The position numbers and the translations under genes are program-made. Positions 3,866-9,276 of a stretch of 18,653 bases of DNA are shown here, piece after piece. The notes under the pieces were generated by a model. The model was not told the origin of the DNA and ran no database searches. It worked only from the letters and a program-made list of their open reading frames with translations. The stretch's first letter is position 1; every line of letters starts with the position of its first letter. This DNA is from Promethearchaeota archaeon (GTDB lineage: Archaea; Asgardarchaeota; Lokiarchaeia; Sigyniarchaeales; SOKP01): assembly GCA_048941015.1 (NCBI GenBank), contig JBHLNZ010000048.1, positions 1 through 18,653 of the forward strand, read 5' to 3'.

Positions 3866-4609
3866 CTATTTTTTTAAAACTTGTATTCTTTTATCTTTGG
3901 GGAGCTTTTCACTAGCGTATCTTAGAATTAAGCGAGATAGAACATTCTTATTAAGCATTAAGTAATCAAAAATTATCTCTGGCTTATAATTACTACAGGT
4001 TTTGAGAAGCCAACCAATTCCTTTTTCAATATAATTTTGATCAATAAAATTTAGCATTTTATTTATGTGATTAAATACGTAATCTTCATCAAAGGTCTTT
4101 TTTAGCATAATAATCTTCAAAAGAATAACCATTGAAGCCCTTCTAATCCATATATTATCTACGGAAGCCCAATCATCTATAGTTCTTTTAGCAAGAGCTT
4201 CATTACCCTTCTTTGCTAAAAAGGGCCCTAATACTCTGATACAGGTGCTATCACAATAGCTCCACGTATGACAGTGCTTTAGAAGTTCAATTTTGAACAA
4301 ATTTATGGTTTTTATATCAAAAAAATTTTTATAACGGTTTATATAAAATAATCCGGCGAATTTTTGTTCTTCTATATTTGATCTGGATAGATCTTTAAAA
4401 ATTTCAACTGCTAGCGAATATGAACTTTTATATTTATTATCTACATCCTTTACGATTTTTTCAATATTAGCAATTTTGATTCCATAAATAATGTAATTGG
4501 ATTTATCTGGATTTATGATTTTATACATCCTTGCCTTTTGTTCATCCATAAGATTTGGAGAATGTTTTTTCAAAAGTTCCTTGATTTCGAGTAATATTTT
4601 TTCTTTCAT
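3866..4609 (-). CDS. DNA alkylation repair protein (AlkD-like HEAT-repeat family)
   Basis: TWSYCD, W-x4-NIWIRRAS and YIEKGIGWLLK motifs typical of the DNA_alkylation family; ATGA overlap with the upstream radical SAM gene. Confidence 0.85.
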   Translation of the reverse strand: MKEKILLEIKELLKKHSPNLMDEQKARMYKIINPDKSNYIIYGIKIANIEKIVKDVDNKYKSSYSLAVEIFKDLSRSNIEEQKFAGLFYINRYKNFFDIKTINLFKIELLKHCHTWSYCDSTCIRVLGPFLAKKGNEALAKRTIDDWASVDNIWIRRASMVILLKIIMLKKTFDEDYVFNHINKMLNFIDQNYIEKGIGWLLKTCSNYKPEIIFDYLMLNKNVLSRLILRYASEKLPKDKRIQVLKK

Positions 4610-5742
4610 AAAAATTTATCTAGTCCGTTTTTTCTAATTAATTCTATGCTTTCCTTTAGAAAAGGCTCAACAAAATCTATCACTTGTGAATTAAAGTTTT
4701 TTAGTTTGGATAATTCTTTTCTTCTATAATAATTGAGTATAGATTCTTCAAGATTATTTAGATTTAATCCTGCCCATTTTAAGTTATTATTTGATTTTCC
4801 ATACTTTATTGCATCAATATATTCTTTATTTAAGAGCATTTCTGAGATTAGATAGTTGTATTTCCTAAAATCATTAGGAATCCATCTTTTAATCCTAATT
4901 GATATATCATATTTTTCACATAGGTTAAATAATTTTGTGTGAAATTCTCTAACATATGCTTTGGGAGGATAAATTTGTCCTTTATATAATTCTAATAAAG
5001 GTTTTATAACCTTTTTATATTTACTATTGTTTAATTTTTTTATGAAATATTCTGCTTGAGAATCACGTAAGGTTAATCCAGGAGAAAACAATAAAAAATC
5101 AGCACCAGCTCTTTTAGATTGTTTTATAACATCTTCCAAATTCTCATCATTATCTTCCAAAAATGGAATAATTGGAATAAAATAGGTCCCAACTTGAATT
5201 TTTGGCGCACTTTTTTTAATAGTTTTTAATGCTTCTAACCTCTCAGAAGGTGATGATGAGTATGGTTCTAAAAATTTAGCAAGTTCCTCATTAGTTGAAG
5301 AGATTGAAAATCCTACAGTGCACCAAGTATCATTAGCAATTTTATTCAAAATATCTATATCTCTAATTATCAGTTTGGATTTAGTAGCAATATTAATAGG
5401 GAATTTATGTTTTGCAATAACCTGAATCATTTTTCTTGTATGCTCAATTTCTTGTTCAATTGGCTGATAAGCATCATTTACCCCTCCTGGAGCGATAACA
5501 TCGGGTAATAATGTTCGAGCTCTTTTAAGTCTCTGATCTAATTTCTTATCAAAATCTGTTTTAATAATTACTTCATTTTCAAAATCATTTAAATAATATC
5601 TCTGACTTCTCGCATCACAGTAGATACAAGCATGAGCACAACCAGAATATGGATTTAAAGTGTAACGTGACCAAAACCATGAATCAGGATATTTTAATTT
5701 ATTTAAAACTGTTTTGAACTCCTTATAGATATACTTAACCAT
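4606..5742 (-). CDS. Radical SAM protein, SplB/Rv2578c-like DNA repair family
   Basis: LNPYSGCAHACIYCDAR (CxxxCxxC), DAYQPIE, IATKS and EPYSSSPSERL motifs. Confidence 0.88.
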   Translation of the reverse strand: MVKYIYKEFKTVLNKLKYPDSWFWSRYTLNPYSGCAHACIYCDARSQRYYLNDFENEVIIKTDFDKKLDQRLKRARTLLPDVIAPGGVNDAYQPIEQEIEHTRKMIQVIAKHKFPINIATKSKLIIRDIDILNKIANDTWCTVGFSISSTNEELAKFLEPYSSSPSERLEALKTIKKSAPKIQVGTYFIPIIPFLEDNDENLEDVIKQSKRAGADFLLFSPGLTLRDSQAEYFIKKLNNSKYKKVIKPLLELYKGQIYPPKAYVREFHTKLFNLCEKYDISIRIKRWIPNDFRKYNYLISEMLLNKEYIDAIKYGKSNNNLKWAGLNLNNLEESILNYYRRKELSKLKNFNSQVIDFVEPFLKESIELIRKNGLDKFL

Positions 5743-5834
5743 TATAATATTGTTAAATTTTATTAGTAAGCTGATTAATTAAATAAAAAATTTATTTTTA
5801 GCCAATTAAAATTTAACATTAATTAAAAGCTAGA

Positions 5835-5913
5835 GAAAAAACGCCTTGGCAACATCATTAAAAAGTGATTAAAATATGGAAAGGAAAGACACTACCTATA
5901 AAGGCGTTTTTTC
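5835..5913 (-). ncRNA. Candidate small RNA 1 (13-bp terminal inverted repeat, 53-nt variable interior)
   Basis: GAAAAAACGCCTT (5835-5847) pairs with AAGGCGTTTTTTC (5901-5913). On the minus strand a TATA-like TTTACAAA lies 16 nt upstream and a T6 run ends the unit. The repeat is certain; the RNA call and strand are inferred. Confidence 0.5.
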
Positions 5914-5929
5914 AATATAAATATACTAA

Positions 5930-5937
5930 TTTGTAAA
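5930..5937 (-). promoter_or_regulatory. Putative TATA box for element 1
   Basis: TTTACAAA on the minus strand, with the same 16-nt spacing and TTA continuation as the box before element 2. Confidence 0.4.
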
Positions 5938-6055
5938 TATATTTTTTAAGGTTTTGAAACATAATCGACATTTTATATTGAATTTTCGAAATCATATGTA
6001 AGATTTCTTAAGATTTAATTTAGATAGTCTTTAATAACGAATATCAAAAAGAAAA

Positions 6056-6132
6056 GAAAAAACGCCTTTTAAAAGAAGGGTTGAAAATTAATTGGCTGAT
6101 TCAAAGAATAATTTATTTAGAGGCGTTTTTTC
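6056..6132 (-). ncRNA. Candidate small RNA 2 (12-bp terminal inverted repeat, 53-nt variable interior)
   Basis: GAAAAAACGCCT (6056-6067) pairs with AGGCGTTTTTTC (6121-6132). Minus-strand TTTATAAA lies 16 nt upstream and a long pyrimidine tract follows downstream. Confidence 0.5.
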
Positions 6133-6148
6133 ATTAATATTATCTTAA

Positions 6149-6156
6149 TTTATAAA
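6149..6156 (-). promoter_or_regulatory. Putative TATA box for element 2
   Basis: TTTATAAA matches the archaeal TATA consensus, 16 nt from the element. Confidence 0.45.
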
Positions 6157-6245
6157 TTTATATTTGACTATTTAATTTCAAAGTTAAAAGATAATTTCAA
6201 TTATTTTTTTCGGGATATAAGGATAAATATTAATGATAAAGAATT

Positions 6246-6273
6246 TCGTGAAATGCTGATTTCACGATCAAAT
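6246..6273. repeat. Palindrome TCGTGAAAT-GCTG-ATTTCACGA (complete copy; recombination or protein-binding site)
   Basis: Perfect 9-bp arms at 6246-6254 and 6259-6267; 6257-6273 is repeated exactly at 7266-7282. Confidence 0.75.
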
Positions 6274-6342
6274 TAACTAGTATTTGATTTAATAGTTAAA
6301 ATGTAATAATACTTTTTTAAGATATAAATATAATAAATAACC

Positions 6343-6360
6343 TCGTGAAATGTTGATATC
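6343..6360. repeat. Left half plus spacer of the same palindrome (TCGTGAAATGTTGAT)
   Basis: 14/15 match to 6246-6260; right arm degenerate. Confidence 0.65.
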
Positions 6361-6411
6361 GCTTAAATCGCATTGTGGGTTTAACAATGAAATTAAAAAA
6401 AATGAAGAAAA

Positions 6412-7149
6412 TCATTCAAATTTCTTTGTATACTCCTTTATATTATCAGGAGGCCATGCTTTTGGGGTACTACCAAATCGAGTAAAACGATGATCACACC
6501 CTGAAGCACCATTTGCGATAGTTTTAGTACGTGAGAATCCATATCCCAGAACATGTGCGTGAGCAAAATCAAGAAGGCAAGCAAATGGCACATATTTCTC
6601 CGCTCCTAATTTTTTATACGCCTTAAGAATTCCACATTCAGAAATATTATAACCGAAATCAAAATCTTCATTAGTACCATCCACAAATTGCATAACCCAA
6701 TCATCAGGATATTTCCTTTTCTGTGAAATCTCACAATACTTCTTTAGAGGTTTAATATAAGCATCATTAAAAATGATATCTAAAAGATTTCCTCCACTTT
6801 CTTCTACTTTTTCTATTTCTTTTCTTGTTTCTATCTCTTTATATGTATTACTGAATTCACCAATTTCTCGATAAGTGTATCCTTCCTTTTCAAGGATGCG
6901 AAACATTGCTAATAAGGATACTTTAGCTGTAAGGGTTGAAATGAATGGATGCTTGCCCCCTCCGATATCAGTCATTTTGGTAAGAATATCTTCATACTCC
7001 CTTCTCATTTGATTGATTAGAGCTTCAGATTTTGACTCACTGAATCTCTCTACTAAAATATCTTTTGCAATTTGTAAAGATAATTCAAATTGTTTCATTA
7101 ACCTTGGTTTATTCTTAATATAATAGTCTTTAACATTTCCAGTTGGCAT
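6412..7149 (-). CDS. L-2-amino-thiazoline-4-carboxylate hydrolase-like (ATC_hydrolase family) protein
   Basis: C-terminal pattern ECG...ACLLD...GFSRTKTIANGASGCDHRF is typical of this family; real substrate unknown. Confidence 0.75.
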   Translation of the reverse strand: MPTGNVKDYYIKNKPRLMKQFELSLQIAKDILVERFSESKSEALINQMRREYEDILTKMTDIGGGKHPFISTLTAKVSLLAMFRILEKEGYTYREIGEFSNTYKEIETRKEIEKVEESGGNLLDIIFNDAYIKPLKKYCEISQKRKYPDDWVMQFVDGTNEDFDFGYNISECGILKAYKKLGAEKYVPFACLLDFAHAHVLGYGFSRTKTIANGASGCDHRFTRFGSTPKAWPPDNIKEYTKKFE

Positions 7150-7307: not shown

Positions 7308-7379
7308 TGCGTCGCCCGGGAATCGAACCCGGGTCACCGGCTTGGAAGGCCGGAATCATAACCCCTAGACTAGCGACGC
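7308..7379 (-). tRNA. tRNA-Gly(TCC), intronless
   Basis: Acceptor GCGTCGC/GCGACGC+A, anticodon arm CCGGC-CT-TCC-AA-GCCGG, T-arm CCGGG-TTCGATT-CCCGG; CCA not encoded. Confidence 0.97.
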
Positions 7380-8856: not shown

Positions 8857-9276
8857 ATGTCAATCTATGTCGTTGAACCCGGAAGACTAATTCAATTATT
8901 AGCAGAAAAGTTGAAAGAGTTCCCAGAAATAAAACCACCAGAAGGAAGTCAATTTTGGAAAACTGCTTTTTTTAAGCAACTAGCACCAATCGATTCTGAG
9001 AATTTTTGGTATATTCGATGTGCTTCTATATTAAGAAAAATAAAAAAGTATGGTCCAATCGGAGTAAATAAGTTAAGAAGACTTTACGGAGGAAGAAATA
9101 GAAGAGGTCCCGGCTTAAATCATAGTGCAAAAGGAAGTGGTAAAATAATTAGAGTAGCATTACAGCAATTAGAAAATGCAAATTTAATCGAAAAACAAGA
9201 GAAAAAAGGGAGAATTCTTTCTCCTGAAGGAACAAGTCTTTTAGAACGGATGGCATATAATATAATAAGGAAATAA
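8857..9276 (+). CDS. rps19e: Ribosomal protein eS19
   Basis: WYIRCASILRK, GPIGV...YGG and GSGKIIRVALQQLE motifs. Confidence 0.97.
   Translation: MSIYVVEPGRLIQLLAEKLKEFPEIKPPEGSQFWKTAFFKQLAPIDSENFWYIRCASILRKIKKYGPIGVNKLRRLYGGRNRRGPGLNHSAKGSGKIIRVALQQLENANLIEKQEKKGRILSPEGTSLLERMAYNIIRK

Follow-up and report, generated by a model that had tools for sequence, protein, structure and literature searches.

Several sRNAs that act on trans-encoded or transporter mRNAs have been described, and the archaeal ones among them include those of Methanosarcina mazei: sRNA41 is reported to be an RNA that masks ribosome binding sites, which resembles the mechanism proposed below for the element U1, and sRNA162 a trans-acting RNA that targets a trans-encoded mRNA, as is also proposed for U1. 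Two intergenic sRNAs of Haloferax volcanii have the transcripts of ABC-transporter operons as targets, a phosphate operon for sRNA132 (PMC6560208) and a zinc operon for s479 (PMC8155600). On the bacterial side, the GcvB regulon (PMC9299463) involves repression of mRNAs encoding ABC-transporter substrate-binding proteins for peptide and amino-acid uptake, and AbcR1 pairs through single-stranded motifs of the anti-Shine-Dalgarno (anti-SD) type at the translation initiation regions (TIRs) of binding-protein mRNAs (PMC4152367). No regulatory RNA of the U1 kind is described for Asgard archaea in the literature searched.

The window analysed here, a stretch of 18,653 nucleotides, is contig C115 of a 3.59 Mb archaeal MAG with 29% GC (G000, its own genome). 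Within it, a 669-nt spacer (5743-6411) separates two minus-strand genes, a radical-SAM gene of the PA0069/Rv2578c-like type (4606-5742) and, on the other side, an ATC_hydrolase-like gene (6412-7149), and contains two hairpin units, both read on the minus strand. U1 (5835..5913, 79 nt) is a candidate sRNA gene designated type A for its loop directed against a substrate-binding protein (SBP), and U2 (6056..6132, 77 nt) is a candidate sRNA gene of type B, a diverged paralogue. As the original prediction had it, the two have a closing stem of 12-13 bp in common (GAAAAAACGCC...GGCGTTTTTTC) and lie 221 nt apart from start to start, and both the sequence itself and a repeat finder give GAAAAAACGCCT as the start and AGGCGTTTTTTC as the end of each unit. 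The 12-bp closing helix of U1, P1, is made up of the 5' arm GAAAAAACGCCU (5902..5913) and the 3' arm AGGCGUUUUUUC (5835..5846), which includes a U6 run (5836-5841) and of which the part GGCGUUUUUUC is almost invariant family-wide. Folding of the minus strand compared with shuffled sequences yielded z values of -4.8 and -4.1 for the two hairpins.

A genome-wide search for the paired arms, which had been proposed together with the prediction, was carried out with the pattern AAAAACGCC-N30-60-GGCGTTTTT and returned only the U1 and U2 sites in the 3.59 Mb genome (none for the reversed control), while a single stem arm occurs 13 and 14 times on the two strands. The interiors of the units had been called unrelated; they indeed cannot be aligned with each other, but they follow a common design, since on the plus strand each reads as an SD motif, a spacer, a start codon and first codons (GAAGTGATTAAAATATGG versus GAAGGGTTGAAAATTAATTGG). 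Comparison of the window with Rfam 15 at the gathering threshold gave a single passing match, the tRNA-Gly(UCC) at 7308-7379 on the minus strand, located between Nep1 and the ATC_hydrolase-like gene, which is also the sole ARAGORN match in the window; ARAGORN finds nothing at the hairpins, in agreement with the predicted lack of tRNA features. A permissive Rfam search of 5700-6450 produced best matches with E-values of 0.29-2.6, far under the gathering score, and none of the Rfam 15 families for GcvB, C/D-box sRNAs or CRISPR repeats was found at the hairpin locus.

A BLAST comparison of the spacer with related genomes gave matches to U1 that included the interior, and a covariance model (R1) was then built from 12 distinct copies. 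This model, which like the Rfam comparison had been suggested as a check, scores U1 at 83.5 bits (E 4.9e-13) and U2, through the scaffold only, at 36.8 bits (E 0.002), and the R1 family has no Rfam match. R1 matches were obtained in 37 of the 41 other genomes of the same genus (g1) and in 47 of 53 genomes of the sister genus g12, with one to two copies per genome; matches in two further genera are marginal, and there are none in 19 genomes from three other families of the order. The U1 family is thus kept in at least 84 species-level genomes, and in 70 of 135 genomes of the taxonomic family the scaffold pattern by itself is present at one or two sites each, compared with 0-1 for the control.

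The genomic position of the element is equally constant: the more than 40 loci examined all have it co-oriented with the orthologous radical-SAM gene, at a distance of about 90 nt on the upstream side, with Nep1 on its other side, with or without the ATC_hydrolase-like gene. The latter has the appearance of an insertion, being present between Nep1/tRNA-Gly and the sRNA locus in only some relatives (the window, G047 and G045/L031); in G045 a type-A sRNA copy lies on either side of it (L044:1501-1571 and 423-506). Just downstream of this gene the window also contains a repeated CGTGAAATG(C/T)TGAT motif (6233-6263 and 6330-6360) and a perfect hairpin at 6246-6267. The U2 orthologue in the sister species G054 lies 242 nt from the U1 of that genome, and type-B units are found just downstream of Nep1 in G080 and G099, in short loci that end before the radical-SAM side, at what looks like the same syntenic site as the U1/U2 locus.

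Further variation in the interior was also noted. In four g12 genomes (G058 at L107:1405-1483, G077, G105 and G145) the scaffold is present a second time, at a distance of about 200 nt, and bears a third type of loop; the reverse complement of this loop, AAAGAGAG(C/T)TGAAAA(A)TATT..., is similar to the SCP2 TIR discussed below in the part that comprises SD and spacer. Some loops are expanded by (UUUCCA)n of up to about six units, the antisense of (UGGAAA)n, or by duplication of the anti-SD block AAUCACUUAAUCACUU (L064 in G044, L061 in G021, and L060/L062/L063 in G005, G050 and G051).

The closing stem is more consistent with function on the minus strand, where 98.2% of P1 cells are paired in an alignment of 47 sequences, against 92.9% on the plus strand. 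The alignment includes 34 G·U/U·G cells, most of which reflect A->G substitution in the 5' arm where it faces the nearly constant U-run, as well as three pairs that are changed on both sides; none of 500 shuffles reaches the observed score, slid controls are at most 68% paired, and the same picture is repeated in 22 independent metagenome sequences. An inner helix of variable sequence, P2, is present in many members (GGUAGUGUC/GAUGUUGCC in U1), and the loop core is mostly unpaired, with P(unpaired) of 0.5-0.98 and a mean of 0.96 over the 15-nt CCAUAUUUUAAUCAC part in U1.

Transcription signals point to the same strand. The minus-strand boxes of the original prediction, TTTACAAA at 5937-5930 and TTTATAAA at 6156-6149, do end 16 nt before the stem and both units do end in T6, and the fixed distance of the box holds, but in the family-wide alignment the likely TATA box is shifted upstream by about 5 nt, to -29..-22 (ATATATTT and ATAAATTT), so that transcription would start at the first G of the stem. 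In the promoter-like region of U1 (5930..5948, minus strand), ATATATTT (5942-5935) is the best-placed box and is preceded by a BRE-like A-rich run (5948-5943), with TTTACAAA occupying -24..-17; that of U2 (6149..6161, minus strand) combines ATAAATTT (6161-6154) and TTTATAAA in the geometry of U1, which is kept in G054. Throughout the family a TATA-like box, belonging to one of three types (TTATATTT, ATTTATAA and ATATATATAA), is located 21-25 nt before the first G of P1 in all members despite diverged flanks, and the 3' end consists of U5-6 in every member. As oligo-U is established as a terminator of archaeal transcription (for example PMC8716108), the U6 of the U1 3' arm probably doubles as a terminator.

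A palindrome, TACA-N4-TGTA, is found at exactly -22..-11 in 22 of 49 copies from both genera (L038-L044, L093-L109) and is a candidate transcription-factor operator; the copy in U1, TACAAATTAGTA (window 5924-5935), situated between the TATA box and the sRNA start, is degenerate. Another conserved AT-rich promoter-like block, AAATTTTTT.. (the reverse complement of AAAAATTTAAGATT), separates the hairpin from the start of the radical-SAM gene. At the level of sequence, the family has a promoter and a terminator of its own, distinct from those of the neighbouring genes, and the fixed TATA-like box, the U6 end and the strand-specific covariation of the stem together support the predicted independent minus-strand RNAs of about 70-80 nt, the synthesis, strand and ends of which we infer from these features. 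The further suggestion that the constant closing stem serves as a protein-binding handle is pure conjecture.

The type-A loop is conserved as UUCCAUUUCCAU(A/U)UUUUAAUCACUU with the core UUUCCUUUCCAUAUUUUAAUCACUU, and the reverse complement of the conserved loop consists of an SD motif (GUGAU), a 7-nt spacer, ATG and four more codons. Apart from itself, the U1 interior has its best match within G000 at C119:67093-67119, where 26 of 27 positions agree and one nucleotide is bulged. This stretch comprises the SD and ATG of a 681-aa SBP_bac_5 gene (MERKAQIAVGV...) unlinked to U1, and the U1 anti-TIR core CUUUCCUUUCCAUAUUUUAAUCACUU (5863..5888, minus strand) is complementary to SD, AUG and codons 2-5 of that gene. 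It encodes a family-5 (Opp/Dpp/Nik-type) ABC substrate-binding protein and is the first gene of an Opp/Dpp-type operon, being followed by two unnamed ORFs and then by OppB-, OppC-, OppD- and OppF-type genes; NCBIfam places its product among nickel, dipeptide and oligopeptide binders, under all cut-offs.

To rank possible targets, 9,925 candidate TIRs were sorted by duplex energy against the 34-nt loop core of U1. The SBP site took first place at -35.8 kcal/mol, with the next site at -28.0 kcal/mol and a mean of -8.9 (sd 3.8), and reversed and shuffled cores reached only -24.4 to -24.7 kcal/mol at best. This ranking was used in place of a sliding-window duplexfold of the full 55-nt loop (as far as contig C20) because the background of the latter, with long interrupted duplexes of -30 to -36 kcal/mol, was too high; an ungapped G·U-tolerant scan under-scores the true SBP target because of the 1-nt bulge. 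The lower-ranked predicted targets (DUF169, SDR, RIO, thiolase and an Fe-S protein) have no common theme and therefore no regulon is claimed. Between the U1 loop and the start region of a LivJ-like Peripla_BP_6 gene (G000:C32:439-1920, L076), 22 of 23 positions agree (TAAAAAGTGATTAAAAAATGGAA); this site ranks 8th of 9,925 at -24.2 kcal/mol, within the range of the control loops, and may be a secondary U1 target or a chance match.

The pairing of sRNA and SBP gene recurs in other genomes. With up to three mismatches allowed, the consensus 27-mer was found in 31 of 42 genomes of the genus (reversed control 0), and in at least 13 of these 31 there is a second locus away from the sRNA gene. Fifteen of the 16 second loci that were fetched, counting those with a long or contig-cut ORF, are the starts of orthologous SBP genes, which begin with MEMEKKNVAIIILAIAL... 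or, in G002, G005 and G024, with MEKK...; the sixteenth, in G009, has a 9-codon ORF, coincides with a weak R1 match (E 0.004) and is sRNA-like. The same pair, with an accessible loop complementary to a conserved TIR, is hence present in 15 or more genomes. Each orthologous SBP ATG is preceded at about 85 nt by the palindromic, promoter-like AAAACTTATAAGTTT (L075 at approximately 9190-9205, and L077-L090), which leaves a 5' UTR of about 55-60 nt between the motif and the SBP start and may be a shared TATA box or operator of the SBP transporter. The loop motif was also looked for in 241 million metagenome records, which yielded 62 contigs, with White Oak River, Guaymas and Aarhus Bay-type sediments among their sources; these contigs divide into 24 sRNA scaffolds, 19 SBP-like gene starts and 19 others, several of which look like sRNA variants. 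In the g12 genomes, 26-mer searches found sRNA loci only, no SBP start with the exact ATGGAAATGGAA was confirmed in four of the five genomes checked (the candidate G098:C35:302814 was left out), and with gaps allowed an SBP start was confirmed for G131 alone.

Two cases of joint change in sRNA and target were identified. In the window's genome and its sister G054, GGAAAGGAAAG stands in place of GGAAATGGAAA, a 1-nt deletion that is present both in the sRNA and in the SBP target, and duplexes with their own or each other's targets have energies of -38 to -39 kcal/mol, compared with -22 to -37 kcal/mol for the other 13 targets. In G043, where the target reads GGAUUUGG and the sRNA CCACAUCC, an A->U change in the target is matched by a U->A change in the sRNA, the net result being a single compensatory pair, a mismatch and two additional G·U pairs. 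Most cognate and non-cognate pairs in the duplex matrix score alike because the TIR is conserved, giving no general specificity signal outside the G000/G054 clade, and the co-variation therefore rests on these two events.

For U2 the proposed target is more tentative. Its loop core (6071..6100, minus strand) is antisense to AAAAGAAGG(G)TTGAAAATTAA..TGGYTGAT, the TIR of SCP2-domain genes on contig C32, which reads AAGAAGGTTGAAAATTAAAATGGTTGATG, and two tandem 142-aa SCP2-domain genes on this contig rank first and second among the 9,925 TIRs (-31.6 and -30.0 kcal/mol). As the control loops of U2 reach similar energies (-26 to -33 kcal/mol), the SCP2 link is tentative and not significant by energy alone. 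A BLAST search with the U2 loop in its own genome gave no match above 14 nt, and 28-mer searches of G080 and G099 for type-B targets, with up to three mismatches, picked up no site other than the sRNA genes. Independent support comes from scaffold loops in other genera (g15, g16 and g18), which contain CAUCAACCA(U); SCP2 orthologues start with a conserved ATGGTTGATG, to which this sequence is antisense. In the region L139:2627-5370 (G000:C32), two tandem pairs of SCP2-domain paralogues, oriented divergently, make up a cluster of four beside an M48 peptidase gene; at least three genera conserve the TIR of the first of these pairs, GAAGGTTGAAAATTAAAATGGTTGA. The guide-like, exchangeable loop of the original prediction is borne out in so far as two loop classes occur on one scaffold, at a site that looks syntenically the same, and are antisense to unlinked start regions.

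Conservation, strand-specific covariation of the stem, promoter and terminator geometry, complementarity to the target and one co-variation event thus make it probable that U1 is a trans-acting RNA of about 79 nt that blocks the initiation of SBP translation, and that U2 is a paralogue with a different anti-start loop. According to this proposal, transcription would start at or near G5913, 21-25 nt after the TATA-like box, and stop in the U6 run, and the RNA would fold into the 12-bp closing stem P1, often with a short P2, and a large, mostly unpaired loop. In vivo, the 26-nt antisense part of the loop would pair with the SD (GUGAU), the AUG and codons 2-5 of the SBP mRNA. The 3' end of 16S rRNA reads GGAUCACCUCCU and the AAUCAC of the loop consists of the same letters, so the loop may be expected to compete with the ribosome for the SD while also covering the start codon, and initiation should be blocked. 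Repression is the outcome that we infer: as the loop is antisense to the ribosome binding site and first codons of the SBP gene, U1 most likely switches the SBP transporter off at the level of translation. U2 would act from the same scaffold through a different anti-start-site loop, probably aimed at SCP2-domain genes.

The position of the hairpins suggests another explanation, in which they form a cis-acting 5' leader or attenuator of the radical-SAM gene, where transcription stops at the U6 or reads through, and in which the likeness to the SBP start is secondary. Strict synteny and co-orientation about 90 nt upstream of the radical-SAM gene in over 40 loci would be expected of such a leader, as would a hairpin followed by a U-run; however, the separate promoter-like block AAATTTTTT.. 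intervenes between hairpin and gene start, the most conserved part is the loop, with 24-27 nt that correspond to, and co-vary with, an unlinked gene, a tandem pair of units that differ in their loops (as in the window and in G054) does not suit a single leader, and the short loci of G080 and G099 have a type-B unit beside Nep1 at apparently the same syntenic site. We therefore regard a leader as unlikely. Still less probable is that the functional strand is the plus strand, acting as a short mRNA or decoy with an SD and AUG copied from the SBP gene, which would encode a micropeptide (MEME.../MERK...) or titrate a factor: although a perfect SD-spacer-ATG arrangement followed by T6 can be read there, the ORFs have 0-29 aa in shifting frames with no conservation past codons 1-4, the 34 G·U stem cells of the minus strand would become A·C mismatches, and the positionally fixed TATA-like box is on the minus-strand side.

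That the units are non-functional, either as a mobile element of the MITE kind or as a stray fragment of an SBP 5' end caught between terminator-like inverted repeats, could be argued from the 12-13 bp terminal inverted repeats and from an interior identical with part of another gene, but is the least credible of these readings. The original prediction had named genome-wide MITE copies as the finding that would speak against an sRNA; with a copy number of only 1-2 in the set of 135 genomes, a constant syntenic site and no multi-copy family, a MITE is ruled out, and a relic would hardly account for a loop core more conserved than its flanks across two genera or for compensatory and wobble changes that maintain the stem. 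Two other identities were considered and rejected, namely a bidirectional intrinsic terminator (the loops are 47-75 nt long with conserved sequence, there is one locus per genome, and a terminator scan calls neither unit) and a small-protein gene or type I toxin-antitoxin-like pair (the opposite ORFs have 0-29 aa, with frame and sequence not conserved after MEME). The sigma-70 promoter and intrinsic-terminator scan, which is uninformative for archaea, called only the hairpin at 6246-6267.

Starting from the trans-acting RNA that we favour, a more far-reaching model can be formulated, which at present seems possible but rather doubtful: that of a modular, retargetable Asgard riboregulator scaffold with interchangeable loops captured from target starts. 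The cassette would consist of the TATA box, a G-A6-CGCC 5' arm and a GGCG-U6 3' arm, with a stem that is also the terminator, and its loops of 25-30 nt would be inverted copies of target 5' ends, from the SBP gene in type A and from SCP2-domain genes in type B. New specificities would arise when the start region of a target is captured in antisense and the two then co-evolve, in an archaeal counterpart of the inverted duplications from which plant miRNA genes originate, and the operator-like palindrome TACA-N4-TGTA would tie the riboregulator system to a dedicated transcription factor.

Asgard archaea are the closest prokaryotic relatives of eukaryotes, and their post-transcriptional control appears almost unexplored. 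In U1 there is now a concrete candidate of wide conservation, whose strand, ends and fold are defined, for which a specific target is predicted and to which a simple mechanism can be ascribed, that of an anti-SD mimic which also covers the start codon. By a crude count, GTGAT occurs upstream of about 4% of long ORFs, SD-led initiation being rare in this genome, and if the proposed reading of U1 is true, SD-dependent initiation would be a regulatory handle in a genome with rare SD motifs. For mining sediment metatranscriptomes, the covariance model is ready for use, as are the target pairs.

Compared with the systems described so far, the U1 family looks like a new sRNA family, as had been predicted, with neither an Rfam match nor a description in the literature searched, whereas a trans-acting mechanism that occludes ribosome binding sites is already known elsewhere. 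No homology of sequence or structure to sRNA41 or sRNA162 of M. mazei is indicated (no Rfam match), and the phylum differs; U1 further departs from both in its unusually long (24-27 nt) and near-perfect complementarity over the SD, AUG and first codons and in being a single long hairpin, the 3' arm of which is also a terminator. The sRNAs of H. volcanii, sRNA132 and s479, likewise not homologous to U1, belong to haloarchaeal transcriptomes that are mostly leaderless and for this reason do not occlude an SD. With GcvB and AbcR1 the functional logic of pairing at the TIR of a binding-protein mRNA is alike, but both are bacterial RNAs that depend on Hfq and act on many targets through short, imperfect seeds, and neither is homologous to U1, for which a single dominant target with near-perfect pairing is predicted. 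Judged from the sequences compared here, what sets the U1 family apart is near-perfect predicted pairing over 24-27 nt, a stem that would double as terminator and loops that appear to be swappable.
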